This document shows, one piece after another, positions 10,715 to 37,928 of a DNA stretch of 64,000 nt. Position 1 is the stretch's first letter. Every line of letters starts with the position of its first letter. The notes under the pieces are model-generated. The model had not been told where the DNA came from. It saw only the letters and a program-made list of their open reading frames with translations, and did no database searches. A program made the position numbers and the translations under genes. The DNA is from an uncultured bacterium (lineage in GTDB: Bacteria > Bdellovibrionota_G > JALEGL01 > DATDPG01): positions 118,363 through 182,362 of the forward strand of contig CAYNHQ010000004.1 of NCBI GenBank assembly GCA_964397255.1, in the 5' to 3' direction.

Positions 10715-12217
10715 CTAGTGTTGGTACCAGCACCCGTCGTGCAAGCTGCCATCGTTTGCATCTTCTCCTCCCAAAATCAGGACATGCGGGTTGCCGCTTT
10801 TGTCCACGAAGTAAGCAGTTGCTTGGTTAAAGAAGCTGTAACCTCCTCCTGTTCCCGAGATCGTGTGAGATCCTGTAGCTCCATTAAAACTGGAGAGTGA
10901 ACCATCGGTTTTGATTTGGGCGTAGCTTTGTTCACTCGAGCCCGGTGAACCGCTATACAACCCTCCGCTTACCAAAATATAACTTCCCGCTACGGTCGCC
11001 GTAAATTTTTCTCGTGATTTGGTCAGGCCACTCGAATTCGCCGTCCAACTCTTTCCGACAAGTGATCCGTCCCGAATATTGATCTGGTTATAATAAACGG
11101 TGCTTTGTTTACTCGTGCTTGCGGATTGTGAAATCGGATCGACCGCAGCACTGTCTCCACCCAAAACGTAGAGATAGCCCGCCGAAACCACTAGCTGATG
11201 GTAAGCACGGGCGGCGGGGAGATTAACCAGCGTCTGCCAACTCCCTAGCGTTCCGTCACTTTTGATGTCTGCCGAATACACTTTTGAAATCGGTTTACCA
11301 CTGGAATTGTTTCCACCAACCACATAAAACCTTCCATGGAAAATCACGGCCCCTTCGGCGAAAAGGGCCTGGGGAAGCGCTGTTGTGGTGTCCCAAGTGC
11401 CGCTTTCACCGCTTGCGGGTAAAGTGCCATTGTCTTTTATAGACGAATAGTAAACCTTCGAGGTGGCCTTGCCTGTCCCATCCAGGCCGCCGAGAACATA
11501 GACATATCCGTTGCCCGTGACGAGCGAATTGAATTCGTTAGCCACTCCGGCCGCCGCAAAACTTCGTTTAGCGGGTAAAGCGGTCGTGGAGCTCCAACTT
11601 GTTTTCGCGAGCGCACCACTGCTCTTGTTCAACGAATTGTAATAAACCGTATCAACATTCGAAGTGTTGTCATCCATCGTTCCCGTTGAAGTGTTCCCTC
11701 CGAGAGCGTAGATGTAGGTGGTTGTTCCGATGGGTGTGGTGACGGACGAGAAACCTTGCTGTGCGGTCGGAAGGCTCGCTGTGGCCGTCCAAACAATCGT
11801 GGAAGGGCTAAAGCTCACGCTCGATACGATCAGAAAACTGAGTTCATTGCTGGTGCCGCCCGGCGTAGTGACCGAAACTTTATAGGTGGTACCCGCAGTC
11901 AAGCCGTTTGGGACGGTTCCTACAATGTAAACATTCGTCCAATTTTTATTTTCAAAATCGATCTTCGCCGAGGCCACGACATCATCCGTAGTGGGATTTC
12001 GAAAATCAACCGAGTACCCATCGGAAGGTGTGGAAGTAAGATCTCCAAAGTTGTTTCCGTCAATGATAAAGAGGCTACCAATCGTACCGCTTCCCGTTAC
12101 TCCTCCGTTGATATCCGTCAACGTAGGTGGCCCATTCCCGTCACTTCCGCAGGAATGGACGAATAAAACCAATCCGAAAAGAATACCAAAAACGTGAAAG
12201 CTTTTTTTAGTATGCAT
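10715..12217 (-). CDS. Cell-surface lipoprotein with IPT/TIG domain and Kelch-type beta-propeller repeats
   Basis: Lipobox 'FVHSCGSDG'. An IPT-like segment is followed by repeated Kelch signatures 'YVYVLGG', 'FYVVGG', 'YLYVLGG', 'YILVSGG'. Confidence 0.65.
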   Translation of the reverse strand: MHTKKSFHVFGILFGLVLFVHSCGSDGNGPPTLTDINGGVTGSGTIGSLFIIDGNNFGDLTSTPSDGYSVDFRNPTTDDVVASAKIDFENKNWTNVYIVGTVPNGLTAGTTYKVSVTTPGGTSNELSFLIVSSVSFSPSTIVWTATASLPTAQQGFSSVTTPIGTTTYIYALGGNTSTGTMDDNTSNVDTVYYNSLNKSSGALAKTSWSSTTALPAKRSFAAAGVANEFNSLVTGNGYVYVLGGLDGTGKATSKVYYSSIKDNGTLPASGESGTWDTTTALPQALFAEGAVIFHGRFYVVGGNNSSGKPISKVYSADIKSDGTLGSWQTLVNLPAARAYHQLVVSAGYLYVLGGDSAAVDPISQSASTSKQSTVYYNQINIRDGSLVGKSWTANSSGLTKSREKFTATVAGSYILVSGGLYSGSPGSSEQSYAQIKTDGSLSSFNGATGSHTISGTGGGYSFFNQATAYFVDKSGNPHVLILGGEDANDGSLHDGCWYQH

Positions 12218-18240: not shown

Positions 18241-20178
18241 ATGCCGTACATTCGGCGGGTGATGGTGGAAGTGAAGCTACCGGATGGGAGCATCAAGAAA
18301 ATAGAGACGGGAAAGACCGTCCTGGATGTGGCCAAGCTCATCGGGGCGGGCCTGGCCAAAGCCGCGATTGCGGGAAAGCTCGATGGCAAAATCGTGGATC
18401 TCCGGATGCCGATTCGGGAGAATGCTTTGCTTCAAATCATTACGGAAAAAGATCCCTTCGCGAATGAAGTGATTCGCCACTCGGCGGAACATGTCATGGC
18501 CGACGCGGTCAAACAGCTCTGGCCCAAAGTGCAAATCGATGTGGGACGAACCGATCACTCTGAAAAATTTCAATACGATTTTAAAATCGATCATCCGTTT
18601 ACGCCGCAGGATCTCGAAAAAATCGAATTGAAAATGAATGAGATTTTAAAAAAAGAATCCACGTTCACACGCGAAGTGGTTTCACGTGAAGAGGCAAAGA
18701 AACTATTTAAGTCGATGGGAGAAGAACTCAAAATTTCCCGTATCGACGATATTCCCAAAGGAGAAAATATTTCTCTGTTTCGGCATGGAAATTTTGTCGA
18801 TCTCTGTCGCGGGCCGCATGTCCAGACCACATCTCAAATCGGCGCGATTAAGTTGTTGGAAACTTCCGCTTCTTATTGGCGGGGCGATGAAAAAAACGAA
18901 GTTCTTCAGCGCGTGTACGGCACCGCATTTCGGACGAAGAAAGAATTAGAAGAGCATCTTGCCCGAGTCGAAGAAGCGAAACACCGAGATCATCGGCGAA
19001 TCGGAAAAGATCTCGATCTCTTTAGTATCTCGGACGAAATTGGACCCGGCCTGATTTTATGGCATCCCAAAGGGGCACTGGTTCGCTACCTGATCGAAGA
19101 ATTTTGGCGAAAAGAGCATTTCAAAGCGGGATACGATTTGGTGGTTTCACCTCACCTCGCCCGTCTCGATCTCTGGAATACGTCAGGTCACACCAGCTTC
19201 TATAAAGAGAACATGTTTTCACCGATGGAAGTGGAAAAGCAACCGTACATGGTTAAACCCATGAACTGCCCCTTCCATATTCAAATTTACAAATCGAAAC
19301 TGCGTTCGTACCGCGATCTACCCCTGCGGTATGCAGAACTGGGGACAGTATATAGATATGAACGTTCAGGTGTTCTCCATGGTCTACTTCGGGTCCGGGG
19401 ATTCACACAGGACGATGCGCACCTATTTGTAACTCCAGATCGGCTCAATGACGAAATCGAAAAGGTTCTCCAGTTTTGCGTCTATATATTTAAAACCTTT
19501 GGGTTTTCCGAGTATGAGATCTACTTATCCACACGCCCGCCAAAGTCCGTTGGCAGCGACGAAGAATGGGCCAATGCCACGACAGCCCTAAAGAACGCCC
19601 TCGAGAAGAGCAAGCTTCCTTTTTCAATCGATCCGGGGGAAGGAGTGTTTTACGGCCCGAAGATCGATGTGAAGGTCAAAGACTCTTTGGGGAGGGCCTG
19701 GCAATGCGCGACCATACAGGTCGATTTCAACCTACCTGCCCGATTTCAGTTGGAATTTATTGACCGGGATGGTACAAGGCGCACCCCGATTATGATCCAT
19801 CGGGCCCTCTTGGGATCGATGGAACGGTTCTTCGGCTGCCTGGTCGAACATTATGTCGGAGCCTTCCCGCTCTGGCTCAGTCCGGTACAGGTCAAACTTC
19901 TGCCCATCACGGATGGGCAGCATTCTTTTGCCGAGGAAGTTCGCCTTAAGCTCAACGCGGAAGGGTTCCGGGCTGAAGTGGACGGGCGTAACGAAAAGCT
20001 GGGCTTTAAAATACGGGAAGCGCAGCTGGAAAAGGTTCCCTTTATGGCGGTCATAGGGGAACAAGAAGTTGCCAAGCGTGAGCTTTCCCTTCGGAAACGA
20101 AGCGGAGAGCAGGTCTCCGGAGTTTCCGTGGATCAATTTGCGAAGCTTCTTCGAGAGGAGGAACAGGCGAGTAGGTGA
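18241..20178 (+). CDS. thrS: Threonyl-tRNA synthetase
   Basis: N-terminal TGS domain '...VKLPDGSIKKIETGKTVLDVAKLI'. Class II motifs are present and the C-terminus ends '...EQEVAKRELSLRKRSGEQVSGVSVDQFAKLL'. The true start may be the second in-frame ATG at 18262 (M-VEVKLPDGS, compared with E. coli MPVITLPDGS). Confidence 0.9.
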   Translation: MPYIRRVMVEVKLPDGSIKKIETGKTVLDVAKLIGAGLAKAAIAGKLDGKIVDLRMPIRENALLQIITEKDPFANEVIRHSAEHVMADAVKQLWPKVQIDVGRTDHSEKFQYDFKIDHPFTPQDLEKIELKMNEILKKESTFTREVVSREEAKKLFKSMGEELKISRIDDIPKGENISLFRHGNFVDLCRGPHVQTTSQIGAIKLLETSASYWRGDEKNEVLQRVYGTAFRTKKELEEHLARVEEAKHRDHRRIGKDLDLFSISDEIGPGLILWHPKGALVRYLIEEFWRKEHFKAGYDLVVSPHLARLDLWNTSGHTSFYKENMFSPMEVEKQPYMVKPMNCPFHIQIYKSKLRSYRDLPLRYAELGTVYRYERSGVLHGLLRVRGFTQDDAHLFVTPDRLNDEIEKVLQFCVYIFKTFGFSEYEIYLSTRPPKSVGSDEEWANATTALKNALEKSKLPFSIDPGEGVFYGPKIDVKVKDSLGRAWQCATIQVDFNLPARFQLEFIDRDGTRRTPIMIHRALLGSMERFFGCLVEHYVGAFPLWLSPVQVKLLPITDGQHSFAEEVRLKLNAEGFRAEVDGRNEKLGFKIREAQLEKVPFMAVIGEQEVAKRELSLRKRSGEQVSGVSVDQFAKLLREEEQASR

Positions 20179-30630: not shown

Positions 30631-31947
30631 CTATCTTAGCCTGTCCATTATGGCTGACACGGTCTTTTTCGCCATGTCGACTCCGTTGGAGACCTGGCGA
30701 TCATGAGGAAAGATCTGCGCCATGGTGCACAGAAAGAAATTGGGGATCGGAGTTTGAATCGATGGGATTTTTTTTCGATAGCCGACCGTCACAATCGGTT
30801 GAGCGTAATTGGCCGTCCAGAACCAGGACTCGAGGACATCTTCCTTAGAAAAGCGCGGGAACATCTTTTCGAGCCAAGGCAGATAGTAAGTAAGAATTTC
30901 CGCGGCGTTCATTTTCAGCCGAGGATCTGTAGCCGGCACATAGGCGGAAATGTACGCGATGTTTTGCCTGTCAACATCACGCGGATCCACCCAATTGGAA
31001 TGCTCGATGATTCCTACAAATGGAGAGGAAGGATCTTTAATGTTCGTCCAATAAAAGGAAGAAAGAGGTTGGCGGAGCGACAGTATGAGGCAAACATTGG
31101 CCAAGAATCGAATGTCTTGAATGGAAGCTCGGTATTCCTTCATGGACTCAGGAAGAATTGAGATAAGGTCGGGAAGTTGTGCGGCGCTAATAACAACATC
31201 GGTCCGAAATCGGCCTTCTTCGGTTTCAATCTCCGAAATTTCTCGACCATCGCTGTGCAGGGCTTTTACGGCCTTCCCCAAATGAATGTGATGGCCTTTT
31301 TGCTCCACCCTTTGGGCCAGCTCGCGAAACATTTTGCCCAGACCTCCTCGCAAATAACCCAGCACTTCATGGCCTGTACGATCACGGGATCCTCCACGAT
31401 CGACAAATTTGGACCAGAGCCACGCGGCGGAGACTTGACCCGCATCCTTTCCGAATTTAGAAACCAACAGTGGTTCCCAAAAAAGACGATAGACATTTTC
31501 TCCGGCACATCGAGTAACATACTCACGCGCTGTTTCGTCATCGAGCGCTTCCCAATTTTTTATCTGTTTCGCCGATACGACCAACTTAGCTAGGCGCAAA
31601 CGATCAAAAAAAGGAAGGGGAGAGTAACGGAGAAGATCCAACGGCGTGCTGAGGCGGTACGATCGCCGGGCGTAATAGGAACCGGTGATGGCAGGCCGCC
31701 ATTCCAGCTGATCTCCCAAGCCTATTTCTCGAAGCAATTCCTGAAGAGCTACATCCGAACGATAGGTGTGGTGGTAAAATTTTTCGACTGAAAATCGCGA
31801 TGTGGAAAAGGTTCCGGCCAATCCGCCCGGTGCGACTTCACGTTCCCAAAGATGTAAATCAATATCGGTGCAATCCCGTGAAAGAAAGTAGGCAGTGGCC
31901 AGCCCACTAATTCCCCCGCCAATAATGTCGATTCGATGTTTAGACAC
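30631..31947 (-). CDS. FAD-dependent oxidoreductase (amine oxidase/protoporphyrinogen-oxidase-like)
   Basis: Rossmann 'IDIIGGGISGLATAYFL' near the N-terminus. GTG start at 31947. The upstream part of ORF-track entry 30631..32001 is translation of the tRNA-Pro gene. Confidence 0.65.
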   Translation of the reverse strand: MSKHRIDIIGGGISGLATAYFLSRDCTDIDLHLWEREVAPGGLAGTFSTSRFSVEKFYHHTYRSDVALQELLREIGLGDQLEWRPAITGSYYARRSYRLSTPLDLLRYSPLPFFDRLRLAKLVVSAKQIKNWEALDDETAREYVTRCAGENVYRLFWEPLLVSKFGKDAGQVSAAWLWSKFVDRGGSRDRTGHEVLGYLRGGLGKMFRELAQRVEQKGHHIHLGKAVKALHSDGREISEIETEEGRFRTDVVISAAQLPDLISILPESMKEYRASIQDIRFLANVCLILSLRQPLSSFYWTNIKDPSSPFVGIIEHSNWVDPRDVDRQNIAYISAYVPATDPRLKMNAAEILTYYLPWLEKMFPRFSKEDVLESWFWTANYAQPIVTVGYRKKIPSIQTPIPNFFLCTMAQIFPHDRQVSNGVDMAKKTVSAIMDRLR

Positions 31948-31956
31948 GAAGAATAT

Positions 31957-32033
31957 TGGTCGGGGCGGCGAGATTCGAACTCGCGACCCCTTGCACCCCA
32001 TGCAAGTGCGCTACCAGGCTGCGCCACGCCCCG
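31957..32033 (-). tRNA. tRNA-Pro (anticodon GGG)
   Basis: Minus-strand fold. Acceptor CGGGGCG/CGCCCCG, D-arm GCGC-AGCCTGGTA-GCGC, anticodon stem CTTGC/GCAAG with loop ATGGGGT, T-arm GCGAG-TTCGAAT-CTCGC. Discriminator A plus CCA. 77 nt. Confidence 0.85.
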
Positions 32034-32039
32034 ACTTGG
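31994..32039 (-). repeat. attL-like 46-nt direct repeat (tRNA-Pro nt 1-40 plus 6 nt upstream)
   Basis: Identical 46-mer CACCCCATGCAAGTGCGCTACCAGGCTGCGCCACGCCCCGACTTGG also at 37797-37842. Confidence 0.85.
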
Positions 32040-32107
32040 ATAATTATTTAATCGTTTTGGTGAGTTGTGTCTACGTTCGTCGATATGATTTTTGGTTCGT
32101 TTCGTCA

Positions 32108-32137
32108 TGGTATCAAATAGGTATCAATTTACGGTCG
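32108..32137 (+). repeat. Island-end arm-type repeat TGGTATCAAATAGGTATCAATTTACGGTCGC
   Basis: GGTATCA-N4-GGTATCA. A near-identical copy, TGGTATCAAATAGGTATCACTTTGGACGACGC, lies at 37624-37655 in the same orientation near the other island end. Confidence 0.5.
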
Positions 32138-33392
32138 CATTTTTCGCCAACAACATCTGCTCGACCGTGTCTTTCATCTCAGGCGGAAGGTTCAACATCT
32201 TGCGCTTCAGTTCCAACAAAATGGGATTCGTATAGTGGGCTTGGTTGACCTCTGGGCTGTTCCGCATGACTCTCGACGCTTCGTCCTGGGTCAACTGGCA
32301 GTAGATCTTGAAGTACGTGTTCGCCGTGGATCGAAGGTCTTTGAACGTATATTTACCAGCCAGGCCAGCGTTTTTGAGTAGCTGTGCCCAAGCTCTACGG
32401 ACGGTATCGATTCTAACGTAACGGTTATCTTCCTTTCTAAAGAATACAAAGTCAGTGGCCATCATTTTGTCCTGGCCATTCAACCGATAGACGCCCACTA
32501 CGTCGTCTCTTTTTTCGATGGATTCGAGAACTAGAAGTGAAACAGGGTTCAAGGGCACCTCACCCTCAACGTCCCATTTCGGACGCCAGCCCATACCATT
32601 GCGTGTAGGGCAGTCGGGCTTGACACGTATTCGTATTTCACCTGTGACGAGATCGATGTCAGACCAACGTAGGTGGAGAATTTCTCCAAGCCTAAAGCCT
32701 GTGGCGGTTGTGAACGTGGCGATCAACTTGATATCAAAGCCGAAGCCTTTTGGGGTCGGGGCAAGCATGATCTGCTTCCATTCATGCAGCTGGATGACCT
32801 TATTGCGTACCCGTTCAGATTTGGCCAACCTCAACGGAGTGACACCAGACAGAGGATTTCGCTCAATATATTTTTTCTTCACGAACCAGTTGAACGCGGT
32901 GTTGAGCCACTTTTGATAACAGTGAACCGTCAATTTTTTCGTGGCTTTTTTGAAGCCAGTGGTCAAAAGAAAGTCACGCAGGGTCAAAAAATCATCTTCT
33001 GTGATCTCGTCCAGAAAGGTTCTGCCACATTGGTCGATGAAATAGGTGAATAACTTCTTTACCGTAGGGGCAACACTCGCTTTACCTTGGTGACTGTACG
33101 TGGCGATGCTTTTGCCCAAGTAAAGGTCAACGGCTTCAACGATGGTAAAACGAGTTGGCGGTAGTATTCCTCTTCGTTTGTTGTCCCAATCGTCAAATAC
33201 ATGGTTCAGTAGCTGGGCTTCCTTGCGTTTGCCCTTGGCCTCGGCATCTCGTCTGTCATTTCCAGCTGGGCGAAAGAAACGTTTTACTGTTTTCCCAACG
33301 GGTAGGTAGTAGCGGTACCAATACTTTGGGTTCTTGTCTTTCCACTCGATGACCTTGAGACGCGGTCTATAGAGGAGTTGGTCGTTCAACAC
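32124..33392 (-). CDS. int: Tyrosine-type site-specific integrase
   Basis: 422 aa. The C-terminal catalytic region 'LHLRWSDID...KDLRSTANTY...HY' has the R..H.R..Y pattern. It lies adjacent to the tRNA-Pro 5' end. Confidence 0.85.
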   Translation of the reverse strand: MLNDQLLYRPRLKVIEWKDKNPKYWYRYYLPVGKTVKRFFRPAGNDRRDAEAKGKRKEAQLLNHVFDDWDNKRRGILPPTRFTIVEAVDLYLGKSIATYSHQGKASVAPTVKKLFTYFIDQCGRTFLDEITEDDFLTLRDFLLTTGFKKATKKLTVHCYQKWLNTAFNWFVKKKYIERNPLSGVTPLRLAKSERVRNKVIQLHEWKQIMLAPTPKGFGFDIKLIATFTTATGFRLGEILHLRWSDIDLVTGEIRIRVKPDCPTRNGMGWRPKWDVEGEVPLNPVSLLVLESIEKRDDVVGVYRLNGQDKMMATDFVFFRKEDNRYVRIDTVRRAWAQLLKNAGLAGKYTFKDLRSTANTYFKIYCQLTQDEASRVMRNSPEVNQAHYTNPILLELKRKMLNLPPEMKDTVEQMLLAKNATVN

Positions 33393-33716
33393 TGGTCACC
33401 CCCATACACTGCCTTTACGTTGATTTTCAACAAATAGGTCGAGATCCGGAAATCAATTTACCCAAGTAAACCGAAAAATATTCCCCTGCCCTGCGTGTTG
33501 ATGATGGGACATTTGCGTTTCGTAATTTTCCACAATGATTTGCCAAAAAAATAGTGCTGGTCTCATAAATTCGAACTTGGTTCCATAGAGTGGACAATGC
33601 AAACGGCACTTAATCTTATTCTTGCGGTATACACCGCCATTGAACGTGGTCTCCAACCAACGGGCCATTCCTGGTAATTGGAAAGAATGGTCCCGTGTTT
33701 CTAAAACGAGGTATCG

Positions 33717-33887
33717 ATGAGTCAAAAACGAACACGACAGAATTTCAGCCAACACGAGCGCGAGCGTATCGTTCAGGAAATTACGGCCTCTGGTCTCACT
33801 CCTACAGCCTACGCCAAGACGCATGGACTCATACCTCGAAGTATCCGCAACACCTTTACGTTGTCGAGCGGCATAGGCGCGGCATAA
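33717..33887 (+). CDS. Short ORF with IS3-family transposase OrfA-like HTH (56 aa; possible remnant or excisionase-like)
   Basis: 'MSQKRTRQNFSQHERERIVQEITASGLTPTAYAKTHGLIPRSIRN' resembles the transposase N-terminal HTH (KR..FS.EFK...V......G.....A...GI....I..W). It is below the 60-aa ORF-track cutoff and was read manually. Confidence 0.3.
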   Translation: MSQKRTRQNFSQHERERIVQEITASGLTPTAYAKTHGLIPRSIRNTFTLSSGIGAA

Positions 33888-34138
33888 GCCAGCAGGCCCG
33901 TATAAAGGACGCTATTGGCGACAGCAAGGCGCATGGGCTGGACGGTGTTCCTCGACAGGTCGAGCGTGAGAATAAGCCAATTCCTCGCCGCCCACCTCCT
34001 TTCACCGAGCAAGATCTCTTCCAATACGTCATCAGAACCATCAACCAGCGTCCAGAGCGACGCATTTCGAACATCCCCTACATCCGTACCATCATCAACT
34101 GTTAGGGCGGCGGCAATCTTGATGAGTAGGAGATCACA

Positions 34139-34396
34139 GTGAAGAAATCTAATCGACTTGATATTGAATTGCCGCCAGCACACACACGTTCATATCAACC
34201 GTGGCCTGGTTCCAAGAGTATCCAGAAATTCAAAGAGGAGAGAGCCGCGCTGATGGAAAATGAGAACGGCATCCAGCCGAGCACGGCGGGTGCAATGCCA
34301 CAGATCAAAATACCTGGACTAACAACCACTGTGGGCGCGGTGCCCAAGATGTCTATCCCGAAGCCCCCAAAAGCAGCTATGAAGGGAAAACCTTAA
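34139..34396 (+). CDS. Hypothetical small protein (85 aa)
   Basis: ORF only. Confidence 0.25.
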   Translation: MKKSNRLDIELPPAHTRSYQPWPGSKSIQKFKEERAALMENENGIQPSTAGAMPQIKIPGLTTTVGAVPKMSIPKPPKAAMKGKP

Positions 34397-34417
34397 AGGA
34401 CGCTCGTAAAACAAGTG

Positions 34418-35084
34418 TTAAACGATCAAGACGTTTTGGTCGGAAAACGTCATTTCCGACCGCCTCATTTCCCTGATTTCGGCGGCGACAGCGCCGTGGG
34501 AGGCACCCGTTAGCTTGGCGATCTCGCGGTAGGTGTGCCCTTCGTTCGCGAGCGTACGGATCAAGTCCCCAGGACGGGTCCTGGGCCGTTCCCACACGTT
34601 TACCCTTGGCCTTTGCGTTCTGTAAGCCATTACGAACCTTTTCGCCGATCAGTTCACGTTCGAGCTGGGCTATCGCCGATATGATCGTGAAGAGCGCCTT
34701 ACCAATCAGGCTAAAAGTGTCTACCTTTTCGGTTAGGCTGACGAACGATACGTTACGCCGCTGGAACTCGTCCAGGGCATCCAGAAGGTGGCGTGTAGAC
34801 CGGGCGAATCGGCTAAACGAATAAACTACGACGGAGTCGAACTCGCCCCGTCTGACTGCTTCCATCAGACCATCGAGAGCGGGCCTGGACGTTTTTGCCC
34901 CGGAGATGTTCTCGTCCTCAAAGACCTGGTAGTCGGTGATGCCGGTGGTCTGGCAATAGGCTTCTAAGGCTCGTCGTTGGGCTTCTAGGCCATTCCCCTG
35001 GCGATCCATCGAGACGCGGCAATACAGCGCGGTTCGTTTTCCCTCCACAAAGACCAATATACCGCATATATGAAGTAGATTCAA
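34418..35084 (-). pseudogene. Serine recombinase (resolvase/invertase family) disrupted by a frameshift
   Basis: The catalytic domain 'ALYCRVSMDRQ...SGAKTSRPALDGL...VVYSFSRFARS...' is in frame 34377..35084. The HTH domain 'RPRVNVWERPRTRPGDLIRTLANEGHTYREIAKLTGASHGAV' is in a different frame, 34418..34630. The frame switch is near 34630. Confidence 0.55.
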
Positions 35085-35114
35085 TTATGTATTATACTGT
35101 GATACAGGGTACTT

Positions 35115-35324
35115 ATGGCCAAACTCATTCTCCAGAAAGTCTTGGATCGCAAAGGGATCACACAGTATCGATTTGCCAAGATGCTGGGCATTAGCCCTGG
35201 CGAGGCGTTTCGATGGTGCCAGGAGGGCTATAATCCGACGCTAAAGACGTTGATCCGTATAGCCGATGTTCTGAATGTAGGGCTGGATGACCTTGTTGAT
35301 CGCGCTAAAATCAGGCGCTCCTGA
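35115..35324 (+). CDS. XRE-family (Cro/CI-type) HTH transcriptional regulator
   Basis: 69 aa '...LDRKGITQYRFAKMLGISPGEAFRWCQEGYNPTLKTLIRIADVLNVGLDDL'. Confidence 0.7.
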   Translation: MAKLILQKVLDRKGITQYRFAKMLGISPGEAFRWCQEGYNPTLKTLIRIADVLNVGLDDLVDRAKIRRS

Positions 35325-35448
35325 CGGGGCATAATTGGAGCAGTTGGGACATTTTGGCCCACGAAGGCGCTATTATATCCTGTTGAATTCACAGAGATTT
35401 GTTTTGGCATCCTCCCTGCTCTATAAGTGCCTCGAAAGGGGTACGACT

Positions 35449-35895
35449 ATGAATTCGAAGTACATACATTTCTCGATTCTGATTGGTTCGCTCATTTTTG
35501 CCACCGCCGCCTTAAGTGAAGACAAGACGGACACTAAAGAGCTTCTCGGGACGAAGGAATGCAGTGTGGTAATCCCCAAAAACGGCCCTGAACCGACGGC
35601 TTTACGTCCCGAGATGGTCGATCAGAAATCAGGCGTAATTTTTGTCGAAGTCAAAAAGACCATCGGTCAAAACATTCAGTCATTCGGGCCATTACAAAAA
35701 TACTACGTCTTCGTGGCACTTAAAAAAGTAGGGCACGACAAAATCGAGTACAGCCTCGGAACTTATGACACGTTTAACGGAGCCAAATCGGCTGATGCGG
35801 CTAGTACGACCGTAGGAATTAACGACGACGCCAACGTTTCCAAGGAACGGGCTGTGGGTGTTTTCCAAGGTAAATCTACTCTATCCTGTCATTGA
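35449..35895 (+). CDS. Hypothetical secreted protein
   Basis: Signal peptide 'MNSKYIHFSILIGSLIFATAALS'. The start is ATG 35449, preceded by AAAGGGG. Confidence 0.45.
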   Translation: MNSKYIHFSILIGSLIFATAALSEDKTDTKELLGTKECSVVIPKNGPEPTALRPEMVDQKSGVIFVEVKKTIGQNIQSFGPLQKYYVFVALKKVGHDKIEYSLGTYDTFNGAKSADAASTTVGINDDANVSKERAVGVFQGKSTLSCH

Positions 35896-35901
35896 TAGTT
35901 T

Positions 35902-36312
35902 ATGTCTTTTAGGAAGTTCACTGCATTGTTAATTTTTTTCGTGGGTGGATCTGCACTCGCGGAGGAATTGGGAGCGCCTCGACTCCGCTGCAAAGCGAGT
36001 TACGGTATTGCAGGTCCATCTGGTCCCGCCGATATTCCCTTGAGGCCGTTCTTCCCTTCGTCAACTATCCGAGGACTCGTGAACGGAAAAGTCACAGACA
36101 CCGAAGTGTTTTTTGACGCTGTTTCGTTAGACAGCATAACGAAGAAAATTAACGACCGATATCCAGGCTATGCAACCATGGGGAAAATTGAGCCACTTCG
36201 CGTCGATTTTGCTAGGGGGATTGGCCAAGACTCCGAAATCGACCTGAGTATGGAGATTGATATCACGTCATCTGGTCACGACTCTTGTTCGCTAGTGAAA
36301 CCAAATTCCTAA
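35902..36312 (+). CDS. Hypothetical secreted protein
   Basis: Signal peptide 'MSFRKFTALLIFFVGGSALA'. Confidence 0.45.
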   Translation: MSFRKFTALLIFFVGGSALAEELGAPRLRCKASYGIAGPSGPADIPLRPFFPSSTIRGLVNGKVTDTEVFFDAVSLDSITKKINDRYPGYATMGKIEPLRVDFARGIGQDSEIDLSMEIDITSSGHDSCSLVKPNS

Positions 36313-36453
36313 AAAGCCCCATCGGTTTTACCTCTACCTATAGCTATTCCGAAGGGTATGAGAAAATTCGTGTTTCTGGCAAATTCTCATCAACTGGGCT
36401 ATTTACCGTAGGTCCTTTGCCGTTGAAACGAACGGCGAAAGGGTGGATAATGA

Positions 36454-36696
36454 ATGACGATGGTTCACGAAAATAAATTTCGATCTTCTTCAGAAGCTGA
36501 TGTTGACCTTTCTCGGCTGCCAGAGGGTCGGCTCGAAGAAATCCAGCAGGTCTTCAAAGTGCTCGGTATTGAAAAAGGGACATATCAGGGTGCCACTGAA
36601 TTGGGTAAACAGCTTCAAAAGGCGAGCAAACTACAATACGAAGGGATCGTCTTTACGACCAGTGGCAGTACGTCGTCGCCTCCCGAAACAAAGTAA
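36454..36696 (+). CDS. Hypothetical small protein (80 aa)
   Basis: ORF immediately upstream of the protease gene. Confidence 0.3.
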   Translation: MTMVHENKFRSSSEADVDLSRLPEGRLEEIQQVFKVLGIEKGTYQGATELGKQLQKASKLQYEGIVFTTSGSTSSPPETK

Positions 36697-36702
36697 ATTG
36701 CA

Positions 36703-37611
36703 ATGCCAAATTGGAGTGAGGTACTCAACGAGATCCAGCAATCGAAGCGTGTTGATGGTCTCGATTATGTTCGGCGCTCCTATCTGAAGAAACTCCACGA
36801 GAAACGGAACCGAAATATCATCTGCTACTATTCTGGCTGGCTACAAAAACCAGGAATCGGTGGCGTTGAAATCGACGACAACGACAAGAATGCCTTTATG
36901 GCGGCAATTCACAAACTTGACCGAGATAAAGGCTTGGATCTTCTGATCCACACCCCTGGTGGGCAGGTGGCGGCGACAGAGTCGATTGTCCACTACCTGC
37001 GAACGATGTTTAAGAACGACATCCAGGCGTTTATCCCACAGATTGCCATGTCGGCGGGGACGATGATCGCTTGTGCCTGTAGAAAAATTCACATGGGCAA
37101 ACAGTCGAACCTTGGGCCGATAGATCCACAATTTAGCGGTATTCCTGCGTATGGTGTCTTGGAGGAATTCAACCGTGCGGCCAAAGAAATCAAGGAAGAG
37201 CCAGCGAAGATCCCTCTCTGGCAGGTCATCATTGGCAAGTATCACCCGACATTCATTGGTGAGTGTGAAAATGCCATTGACTGGTCGCGGGACATCGCCT
37301 CCGAATGGTTGAAGGCAGGTATGTTCGAAGGGAAGAAGAACGCCCAAGAGTCTGCCGATAAAGTAGTCAAGGCCTTGACGGATCGTTCGGTGATGAAGAC
37401 CCATTCGAGGCATCTTGGTGCCGAGAAATGCAAGGAGATCGGCCTCGATATCGAGGATCTAGAGAAGGATAACGACCTACAGGATTTGATTCTGACGGTT
37501 CATCATGCCTATATGCACACGTTCTCGAACTCGTCGGCGATCAAGATAGTGGAAAATCATGAGGGCAGGGCAACTGTGATTCATGCCCAGATCCAAGTTC
37601 AAGCTCGGTAG
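36703..37611 (+). CDS. ClpP/crotonase-fold serine protease of the S49/SDH (serine dehydrogenase proteinase) family
   Basis: 'LDLLIHTPGGQVAATESI...IPQIAMSAGTMIACAC' is the ClpP-like catalytic Ser (A-M-S-A-G) context. 302 aa and cytoplasmic. Confidence 0.5.
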   Translation: MPNWSEVLNEIQQSKRVDGLDYVRRSYLKKLHEKRNRNIICYYSGWLQKPGIGGVEIDDNDKNAFMAAIHKLDRDKGLDLLIHTPGGQVAATESIVHYLRTMFKNDIQAFIPQIAMSAGTMIACACRKIHMGKQSNLGPIDPQFSGIPAYGVLEEFNRAAKEIKEEPAKIPLWQVIIGKYHPTFIGECENAIDWSRDIASEWLKAGMFEGKKNAQESADKVVKALTDRSVMKTHSRHLGAEKCKEIGLDIEDLEKDNDLQDLILTVHHAYMHTFSNSSAIKIVENHEGRATVIHAQIQVQAR

Positions 37612-37623
37612 TTTGCGAGTTTT

Positions 37624-37655
37624 TGGTATCAAATAGGTATCACTTTGGACGACGC
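37624..37655 (+). repeat. Second copy of the island-end arm-type repeat
   Basis: See 32108-32137. Confidence 0.5.
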
Positions 37656-37796
37656 ATCAACGACTTTTGTGCGTAGGGGAACGTATGTGGAACGAAGAGA
37701 GGAATTCCTTTTTGTTTTAACTGATTGTCTGCAAGCCCTTGTCGTGAAAGGGTTTTAGAGAAGCTGTGACTTTAGGCTGACTGAAAATTTCAATGC

Positions 37797-37842
37797 CACC
37801 CCATGCAAGTGCGCTACCAGGCTGCGCCACGCCCCGACTTGG
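37797..37842 (-). repeat. attR-like displaced tRNA-Pro 5'-half fragment (46 nt)
   Basis: Exact copy of 31994-32039. No tRNA 3' half follows, so this is a fragment rather than a gene. Confidence 0.85.
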
Positions 37843-37928
37843 GAAATCTTGTAATGGTTTTAACAAATTATGTCCAACAGAGCGCCCGCTTGCGAAAAGT
37901 AACGCCATGCACCATAATGCGACCGAGC

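Follow-up and report, generated by a model that had tools for sequence, protein, structure and literature searches.

A tRNA-Pro(GGG) gene in the 64-kb stretch of DNA analysed here (the window) has its 5' half repeated at a distance, and the two copies bracket a segment of 5.76 kb that holds an intact tyrosine integrase gene. This locus raises the question of whether an integrative element has supplied the 5' part of its target gene and, if so, how such an arrangement arose. We consider it highly probable that the segment is an integrative element inserted by tyrosine-integrase recombination in the anticodon loop of tRNA-Pro(GGG) with reversed polarity, and that it survives probably as a decaying, poorly mobile remnant.

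The tRNA-Pro(GGG) gene and its displaced 5' half

ARAGORN identified a tRNA-Pro(GGG) gene of 77 nt with an encoded CCA on the minus strand at 31957-32033, and Rfam RF00005 found a single tRNA in the window, at 31960-32033 with a score of 60.5 bits. The repeat search returned an extended direct repeat of 78 nt with 85% identity (31994-32071 and 37797-37874), the first 46 nt of which were exact (31994-32039 and 37797-37842), with mismatching bases on either side. Positions 32033-31994 correspond to tRNA nt 1-40 and positions 32034-32039 to 6 nt of the 5' flank; coordinates and sequence therefore agree with an earlier sequence-only reading of this DNA, which had described the repeat in these terms. 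The 40-nt tRNA part was found exactly twice in 64 kb and in none of 100 shuffles, which rules out a chance origin of the repeat. The right-hand copy had been regarded as a 5'-half fragment; indeed, neither ARAGORN nor Rfam, even at E<=1, called a tRNA at 37.8 kb, and the intact second tRNA-Pro gene raised as an alternative by the same reading is thereby ruled out. Hence, the block at 31994-32039 is the int-proximal att identity block, and that at 37797-37842 is the displaced native 5' half of the tRNA gene with its 6-nt flank.

In raw numbering, the anticodon stem of this tRNA comprises nt 28-32 and 40-44 and the loop comprises nt 33-39; accordingly, the repeat, which ends at nt 40, stops 1 nt beyond the anticodon loop. 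This boundary points to an anticodon-loop site in mirror image. We place the crossover in the anticodon loop, nt 33-39, within which the exact nucleotides are a presumption. The tRNA-Pro(GGG) gene at 31957-32033 would then be a recombinant, to which the element gave everything from the 5' end to the crossover and the host gave the remainder to nt 77. Within the 40-nt identity block, element and host origins are indistinguishable.

Upstream of each copy, a putative tRNA promoter was read on the minus strand. The element-borne one (32045-32073) consists of a -35 hexamer TAGACA (32073-32068), a 17-nt spacer, and a -10 hexamer TAAATA (32050-32045), with 11 nt to tRNA nt 1. The native host tRNA-Pro promoter, now orphaned (37848-37876), is expected to consist of TGGACA (37876-37871), a 17-nt spacer, and TACAAG (37853-37848), also with 11 nt to nt 1. 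These assignments are direct consensus readings, and a generic promoter scan chose other hexamers. The pattern T[AG]GACA-17-TA....-10/11 was observed in one register in all five upstream regions (the element and native copies of the window, those of the related locus L001, and that of L003). The same register at both tRNA copies suggests that the element brings its own tRNA promoter, and the element-borne hexamers may act as the promoter of the restored tRNA-Pro gene.

Paired arm-type sites were found inside both ends of the segment. The pair TGGTATCAAATAGGTATCA was present in the 64-kb window only at 32108 and 37624, both within the element, and its 19-mer thus occurred exactly twice versus 0.01 expected. 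The int-proximal pair (32108-32130) reads TGATACC-TATT-TGATACC in the tRNA sense and overlaps the int stop codon; the distal pair (37624-37646), of the same sequence and orientation, is separated by 155-177 nt from the centre of the anticodon loop in the displaced fragment. The single 8-mer AGGTATCA showed no enrichment and was rejected as an informative site, the paired 19-mer alone being informative.

Integration would have proceeded as follows. The presumed circular form would carry an attP of ~310 bp in the order int stop, arm-site pair, tRNA-type promoter, tRNA-Pro nt 1-40, ~150 nt, and second arm-site pair. The N-terminal domain of Int is expected to bind the arm sites, and the two arms of the anticodon stem would be the core sites bound by Int, with strand exchange inside the 7-nt anticodon loop. 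The native promoter and 5' half would be left as a dead fragment 5.8 kb farther upstream, and the host 3' half would be joined to the promoter and 5' half of the element; by this fusion, a complete tRNA would be kept, driven by element DNA. The sequence-only reading had likewise proposed that the element supplies the 5' half and, necessarily, the tRNA promoter, with the crossover in or near the anticodon stem, and the arm pairs, the hexamers in the same register, and the homologue in L001 agree with this proposal.

Gene content and state of the element

The integrase gene (32124-33392, minus strand) lies upstream of the tRNA gene in the same direction and encodes a full-length protein of 422 aa (PF00589, E 8.7e-13, 48.8 bits versus a cut-off of 27.1; phrog_1, E 1e-31). 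The protein aligned end to end with P0002-P0004 of its family, in which R234, K258, R354, and Y387 were invariant. An identity as a Xer or integron integrase was rejected, as the NCBIfam models for XerA, XerC, and integron integrases scored far under their cut-offs. When the HTH_17 proteins of L003 and L001 were used as tblastn queries, the last 17 codons and the stop of an Xis-like HTH_17 gene were found at 33396-33446 (minus strand; E 1e-5 with 65-71% identity across 17 aa), with an in-frame stop ahead of them. The next ~0.9 kb (33447-34376) has no convincing gene and is probably decayed DNA; it holds a 56-aa ORF (33717-33887, plus strand) with a sub-threshold match to HTH_Tnp_1 (18.9 bits versus a cut-off of 24.1). 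A small serine recombinase (resolvase) pseudogene follows (34418-35084, minus strand), the N-domain of which is in the ORF at 34377-35084 (PF00239, E 1.4e-44) and the C-terminal HTH of which is in another frame because of a 1-nt insertion near 34590. Over 149 aa, this resolvase shares 42-43% identity with its counterparts in L001 and L003, the match ending at GKRVG. A sequencing error could account for the frameshift.

The other genes are on the plus strand. They are an XRE-family HTH regulator of 69 aa (35115-35324; PF01381, E 5.5e-12); two cargo ORFs (35335-35895 and 35902-36312, together 35335-36312) with N-terminal hydrophobic, signal-peptide-like segments judged by eye and no family match in Pfam, NCBIfam, PHROGs, or PADLOC; an 80-aa ORF (36454-36696) directly before the protease ORF; and an SDH-type ClpP-fold serine protease (36703-37611; PF01972, E 3.5e-25; NF047768, E 8.5e-28; phrog_11747, E 1.4e-96) with no match in PADLOC. 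Profile matches thus confirmed the integrase, XRE HTH, SDH-type protease, and frameshifted resolvase listed in the sequence-only reading, whereas its IS3-like HTH corresponds to the sub-threshold match only. A prophage was rejected because no virion structural, packaging, or lysis genes were found and the PHROGs matches were an integrase, a recombinase, a repressor-type HTH, and a protease family of unknown function. An anti-phage defence island was also rejected, PADLOC matching the generic XRE HTH only and none of the cargo.

The copy in the window looks decayed, with the Xis-like gene cut to 17 codons and the resolvase frameshifted, and we infer that the element is now unable to excise. While the structure had been recognised as an element in the earlier reading, this decay (the truncated Xis-like gene and ~0.9 kb without a credible gene) had been missed. 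That the same element is still fully functional and mobile, with the frameshift being a sequencing error and HTH_17 being dispensable or encoded in trans on a helper element, seems unlikely but deserves consideration: int is full length with its catalytic R, K, R, and Y conserved, the 46-nt repeats are exact, and both arm pairs are identical across 19 nt. However, in L001, L003, and six other loci of the family (L053, L056-L061), HTH_17 immediately precedes int, whereas only its last 17 codons are kept in the window, and the geneless ~0.9 kb also speaks against mobility. Furthermore, no replication or transfer gene was found in the element, unlike in L001, which carries a D5_N/PriCT_1 primase. 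A decaying remnant is therefore the preferred reading. An intact repeat together with an intact int is slightly at odds with the description 'old and decayed'.

Relatives of the integrase and the polarity of integration

The integrase family is sparsely sampled: 4 close sequences were found among 5.8 billion, 38 representatives were recovered at E<=1e-30, and every member derives from an uncultured organism. An exact-sequence search with the integrase of the window matched no recorded contig. The wider family was exposed solely by exhaustive HMMER search; a word-indexed profile search gave nothing closer than 24-28% identity beyond the known relatives. Scanning of genome contigs with the integrase profile returned L001 and relatives of mostly 21-39% identity, chiefly in Gemmatimonadota, a metagenome scan with the integrase returned L004 alone, and a viral-contig scan gave one match at 24% identity. 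When genome contigs were scanned with the flanking oxidase for an empty site, none was found, and the best oxidase homologue was 57% identical, the collections searched containing no close relative of the host.

The two closest relatives, with integrases of 54-55% identity, were, like the window, reversed in layout at tRNA-Pro(GGG), with different cargo and flanks. In L001, an Oligoflexia MAG (55% identity), a co-directional tRNA-Pro(GGG) gene is present 88 nt after int, and a second copy of its 5' half is found 11.1 kb upstream, the repeat ending at tRNA nt 40 as in the window. Arm pairs are present at both ends of this element, the second at 159-179 nt, and its cargo and flanking genes are unlike those of the window. 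The two tRNA copies in L001 differ by one mismatch at nt 9, which shows that the int-proximal and displaced copies originated separately; this mismatch limits the crossover only to 3' of nt 9. In L003 (54% identity), int is followed by the same tRNA 5' half, within which the contig breaks. In L001, L003, and L004, the int stop is followed by analogous arm pairs that co-vary in sequence.

Such contig breaks bear on whether the locus is an assembly artefact, in which an episome (the attP form) was threaded into the chromosome by the assembler at the shared 46 nt. The window contig is probably metagenome-assembled, Logan contigs of relatives (L002, L003, L055-L058) break in the tRNA portion beside int, at or near the repeat, 92-152 nt past the int stop, and L053 resembles a free attP. 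We nevertheless regard an artefact as very improbable, because the L001 contig, whose 'k99_' name suggests assembly at k=99, spans its own repeat of only 31 exact nt, and the window contig runs on for tens of kb on either side. Moreover, even an episomal attP would bring both promoter and 5' half, so that the conclusion on polarity stands. Least credible, to the point of being negligible, is that no integration occurred and that the 5' half at 37.8 kb is a local duplication or the relic of a truncated second tRNA-Pro gene with an integrase nearby by coincidence: tRNA 5' halves are highly conserved and tRNA fragments occur in genomes, but the repeat takes in 6 non-tRNA nt of the flank and has its limit at the anticodon loop, at the same place as in the independent L001 element, the arm-type pairs are placed symmetrically within both element ends, and int adjoins the tRNA at equal spacing in three genomes with unrelated flanks. 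Integration in the anticodon loop thus remains the preferred reading.

The next relative, at 42% identity, is conventional and adjoins the 3' end of its tRNA gene, as do six more distant members; these seven conventional members (P0004, P0133, P0135, P0136, P0137, P0139, and P0143) are each located next to the 3' end, or a 3' fragment, of a tRNA gene. In a neighbour-joining tree without support values, the reversed clade was sister to the conventional P0004. The conventional sister locus, L004, is a contig of 2.4 kb, and the island ends lie outside it. The Pro-GGG reversed clade accordingly has a conventional Pro-UGG member as its sister, and a Leu-UAG member that is co-directional with its tRNA has a conventional Leu-CAG member as its sister. 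At L054, a tRNA-Leu 5' fragment upstream of int was not found within 10 kb of sequence, and the case is ambiguous. The distance from the int stop to the anticodon-loop centre was 126 nt in the window, 124 in L001, 125 in L004, 123 in L053, and 128 in L059, and is thus 123-128 nt in five loci, whichever their orientation. In the window and L001, the identity block reaches 1 nt beyond the loop; in L053, a conventional relative, it begins 1 nt ahead of the loop.

In a family that is otherwise conventional with the same attP spacing, the reversed layout appears to have been derived within a small subclade, and it likely originated when the core was flipped about the dyad of the anticodon stem-loop. 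It is conceivable, although we would not yet favour it, that the family switched target polarity at least once and possibly twice by such a flip about the anticodon-loop dyad, with the arm-to-core distance of ~125 nt kept and the tRNA 3' half of the P arm exchanged for a promoter and 5' half. If this is true, the family would offer matched natural pairs for studying why integrases favour the tRNA 3' side and what sets the directionality of att sites. The coexistence of reversed and conventional polarity with equal attP geometry in one integrase family bears on the old question of why integrative elements replace tRNA 3' ends almost universally. The window itself adds a well-delimited example of the minority class, with arm sites, core, a co-carried putative promoter, and homologues, in which a host tRNA gene is placed under an element-borne putative promoter.

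Comparison with known elements

Islander lists 159 islands with a 5' tDNA fragment versus 3760 with a 3' fragment (159/3919, ~4%; PMC4383910), and recombination on the 5' side was described as 'considerably less frequent' than on the 3' side (PMC6563490). The latter credits the naming of the reversed class to Zhao & Williams 2002 (J Bacteriol 184:859). The polarity, which the sequence-only reading had called rarely documented, is instead that of a recognised minority class; because the arrangement was already documented, the window provides a clean new example and no new phenomenon, and its element represents no new mechanism.

Islander defines an island by a tDNA and a cognate end-fragment in the same orientation, 2-200 kb apart, with a tyrosine integrase that is not of the Xer or integron type, with 5' fragments located on the upstream side of the tDNA and 3' fragments on its downstream side (PMC4383910). 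The window contains a non-Xer, non-integron tyrosine integrase, an intact tDNA at one end (31957-32033, minus strand), and a fragment of nt 1-40 (37797-37836) in direct orientation 5.8 kb from the tDNA; this fragment has higher coordinates than the minus-strand tRNA and lies on its 5' side. The element-borne att segment consists of flank and tRNA nt 1-40, as in the reversed class, and the anticodon stem-loop delimits the identity block, as in the anticodon-loop (A) sublocation.

Islands with dusA-specific integrases resemble the window in that they integrate in the 5' end of a host gene, the site lying within the 5' end of dusA (Farrugia et al. 2015, PMC4482086); they would presumably also replace the 5' end of the gene and its expression signals. 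They differ in having a protein-coding target and another integrase family. Closer to the window are the reverse-orientation tRNA elements, which are likewise tyrosine-integrase islands with an intact tDNA and a displaced upstream 5' fragment and must likewise restore the 5' part of the gene, whereas the integrase of the window comes from a very sparsely sampled family. With conventional A-sublocation islands and prophages having a lambda-type attP, the window shares an identity block bounded by the anticodon loop, dyad-symmetric stem arms that could be core sites, arm-type repeats flanking the core, an int adjoining attP, and, in its relatives, an Xis-like HTH_17 gene upstream of int. It is, however, a mirror image of them, with a block that extends from the loop to the 5' rather than the 3' end, a promoter that must also be carried, and an int that is co-directional with the tRNA gene rather than facing its 3' end.

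The tRNA-Pro(GGG) gene and its duplicated 5' half

ARAGORN placed a tRNA-Pro(GGG) gene at 31957-32033 on the minus strand of the window, and Rfam gave a single tRNA at the same locus (60.5 bits), with no further match within 31.5-38.5 kb even at E<=1. The repeat search returned a direct repeat of 78 nt with 85% identity (31994-32071 and 37797-37874), whose initial 46 nt were exact and were bordered by mismatched bases on both sides. In the tRNA-strand sense, these 46 nt consisted of 6 nt of 5' flank (CCAAGT) and tRNA nt 1-40; exact copies of the 40-nt tRNA portion numbered two in the window versus none in 100 shuffles. In raw numbering, the acceptor stem corresponds to 1-7/67-73, the anticodon stem to 28-32/40-44, and the anticodon loop to 33-39 (AUGGGGU); hence, the identity block spans from the 5' flank to 1 nt into the 3' strand of the anticodon stem, including the whole loop. 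The 37.8-kb copy diverged past nt 40 and contained no tRNA. Thus, the sequence-only reading that the tRNA 5' half and its 6-nt flank are exactly repeated, with the far copy being only a fragment, was confirmed, and a second intact tRNA-Pro at 37.8 kb is absent.

The neighboring amine-oxidase/protoporphyrinogen-oxidase-like gene (30631-32001) has its likeliest start at GTG 31947, 9 nt past the tRNA 3' end. As publicly deposited, the oxidase protein (P0005, 456 aa) begins at an ATG within the tRNA gene; accordingly, its N-terminus is probably over-extended.

For each tRNA copy, the preceding 90 nt were placed in a positional alignment. The putative element-borne promoter of the window (32073-32045) reads TAGACA-17 nt-TAAATA-11 nt-C1, and the putative native promoter of the displaced copy (37876-37848) reads TGGACA-17-TACAAG-11-C1. 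The same hexamer register was observed at two loci of integrase relatives, in the element (TGGACA-17-TAAACA-10) and native (TGGACA-17-TAAGAA-10) copies of L001 and in the element copy of L003 (TAGACA-17-TACATA-11). At a third, L004, whose tRNA-Pro(UGG) is unrelated, the register was absent from the upstream region. This common register suggests that the element bears its own, diverged version of the tRNA promoter besides the 5' half, which accounts for the weak similarity over 32 nt past the exact repeat. Judging from the sequence, both putative promoters would be active.

Integrase relatives and the predicted attP

The integrase is rare: when 5.8 billion proteins were searched through a word index, only three homologues emerged, with 55, 54, and 42% identity. 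In L001, from the MAG Oligoflexia bacterium PL23a_bin.77, a co-directional tRNA-Pro(GGG) lies 88 nt after the integrase gene, and a second 5'-half copy, 11.1 kb upstream, terminates at the same nt 40. These two copies have one mismatch, at nt 9, which argues that the integrase-proximal and displaced copies are of separate origin. TGAGACC-N4-TGAGACC pairs were found inside either end. The cargo of L001 (D5_N/PriCT_1 primase, HTH_17, resolvase, TPR, and DUF885) is unlike that of the window, as are its chromosomal flanks; therefore, the association of the integrase with the 5' half is a property of the element and not of host synteny. In L003, the order was the integrase, TGCGACC-N4-TGCGACC, the putative promoter, the same 5' half, and the contig end. 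L004 (42% identity), like several other family contexts a short contig, showed the inverted layout, in which the integrase and TGACACA-N4-TGACACA are followed by an opposite-strand tRNA-Pro(UGG) with its 3' end toward the integrase.

In the window, the paired motif TGGTATCAAATAGGTATCA occurred twice (32108 and 37624; 0.01 expected by chance), both copies being within the element in identical orientation. In the tRNA sense, it consists of two TGATACC units spaced 11 nt. The first arm pair overlaps the integrase stop codon and lies 110-132 nt from the anticodon-loop centre, and the second is 155-177 nt away from the corresponding centre in the displaced fragment. Joining of the element ends would form an attP measuring about 310 bp, in which the core at the anticodon stem-loop has arm sites on either side, as is standard for lambda-type attP; the crossover is presumed to be located at the anticodon loop.

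Gene content and state of the window copy

The tyrosine integrase (32124-33392, minus strand, 422 aa) shares its strand with the tRNA and lies directly upstream of it. The other genes are a serine recombinase (34377-35084, minus strand), in which a 1-nt insertion near 34590 splits the catalytic domain from the HTH; an XRE regulator (35115-35324, plus strand; PF01381); two ORFs with signal-peptide-like N-termini (35335-36312, plus strand) and an 80-aa ORF (36454-36696, plus strand), all without a family match; and an SDH-type ClpP-fold protease (36703-37611, plus strand). The integrase, the frameshifted recombinase, the regulator, and the protease were thus all found as first read. The HTH mini-ORF described there as IS3-like was also present, but its family match was only sub-threshold. 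The protease matched phrog_11747, a phage family of unknown function, very strongly (E 1.4e-96). No phage structural genes were found in the element, and PADLOC gave no match among the cargo proteins, including the protease and the 80-aa ORF before it.

Box II of the window integrase reads K-D-L-R-S-T, with Lys in the place that the first His takes in most tyrosine recombinases (assigned by eye). Where the second His would be, all three reversed-polarity integrases, in which the element supplies the tRNA 5' half, have Asn, and P0004, the conventional integrase of L004, has His. The two positions concerned are residues 351 and 378 of the window integrase.

An excisionase-type HTH_17 gene adjoins the integrase start in L001, L003, and six other family loci (L053 and L056-L061). 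In the window, only its final 17 codons are left (33446-33396), preceded by a stop, and about 0.9 kb upstream of this remnant contains no credible gene. The resolvase, frameshifted here, is conserved in L001 and L003. The integrase is intact, as are the repeats and the two arm pairs. With moderate confidence, we regard the window copy as a recently immobilised or helper-dependent remnant. Database searches found neither an empty attB nor a close host relative.

Both polarities within one integrase family

An exhaustive HMMER search gave 38 family representatives at E<=1e-30, and the genomic context was examined for eight of them. The tRNA 3' end faced the integrase for P0135, P0136, and P0137, where the contig stops; the arrangement was likewise conventional for P0139 and P0143, with intact tRNA-Gly(CCC), and for P0142, with tRNA-Leu(CAG). 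P0133 (locus L053) was accompanied only by a tRNA-Gly(CCC) 3' fragment beginning 1 nt ahead of the loop, in exact mirror image of the identity block of the window. This 2.6-kb contig carries HTH_17, the integrase, an arm pair, and the fragment (1835-2000), with no intact tRNA, and resembles a conventional member in its unintegrated attP form.

For P0134 (L054, contig JBBCAW010000021.1), a co-directional tRNA-Leu(UAG) was found 70 nt past the integrase (11388-11472), which may represent a second reversed lineage; no 5' fragment of it was found within 10 kb upstream. Downstream, at a distance of 7.5 kb (19006-19066), there is a 61-nt 3' fragment with 90% identity to this tRNA, covering nt 31 through the 3' end and a further 6 nt; no integrase lies in between. 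In L062 (11452-11605), a 39-nt copy of the tRNA-Leu(CAG) 5' half lies 31 nt upstream of the conventional tRNA. This copy has the proper G1 (GCCCAGG, pairing with 3' CCTGGGC), and that fused to the 3' half begins CCCCAGG; the extra half may be what a reversed-polarity insertion left behind on its deletion, or may have arisen by micro-duplication.

The distance from the integrase stop to the loop centre fell into two classes separated by about two helical turns: 123-128 nt, comprising reversed (window 126, L001 124) and conventional loci (L004 125, L053 123 as attP, L059 128), and 99-106 nt (L060 102, L054 106, L062 99). In a rough NJ tree, which carried no support values, the reversed clade was sister to conventional P0004 and nested among conventional members. 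The simplest reading is that the family targets anticodon loops and that one subclade flipped the core: the core would have been turned over about the stem-loop dyad, and the tRNA 3' half of the P arm swapped for the promoter and 5' half.

Logan short-read contigs of family members (L002, L003, L055, L056, L057, and L058) repeatedly stop 92-152 nt past the integrase stop, within the tRNA portion, as expected if the samples concerned contain the att core in multiple contexts. Such ends are a useful signature for further family members.

The polarity had been called rarely documented; it is uncommon but established. In Islander, the tDNA fragment is a 5' one in 159 islands and a 3' one in 3760, and the configuration filter of this database expressly allows upstream-lying 5' fragments (PMC4383910). 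Krupovic et al. describe 5'-distal recombination as "considerably less frequent", with reference to several archaeal cases and to Zhao & Williams 2002 (PMC6563490). Hence, the window island adds one more case and not a new phenomenon. Its added value is the occurrence of both polarities inside one integrase family with the attP geometry conserved.
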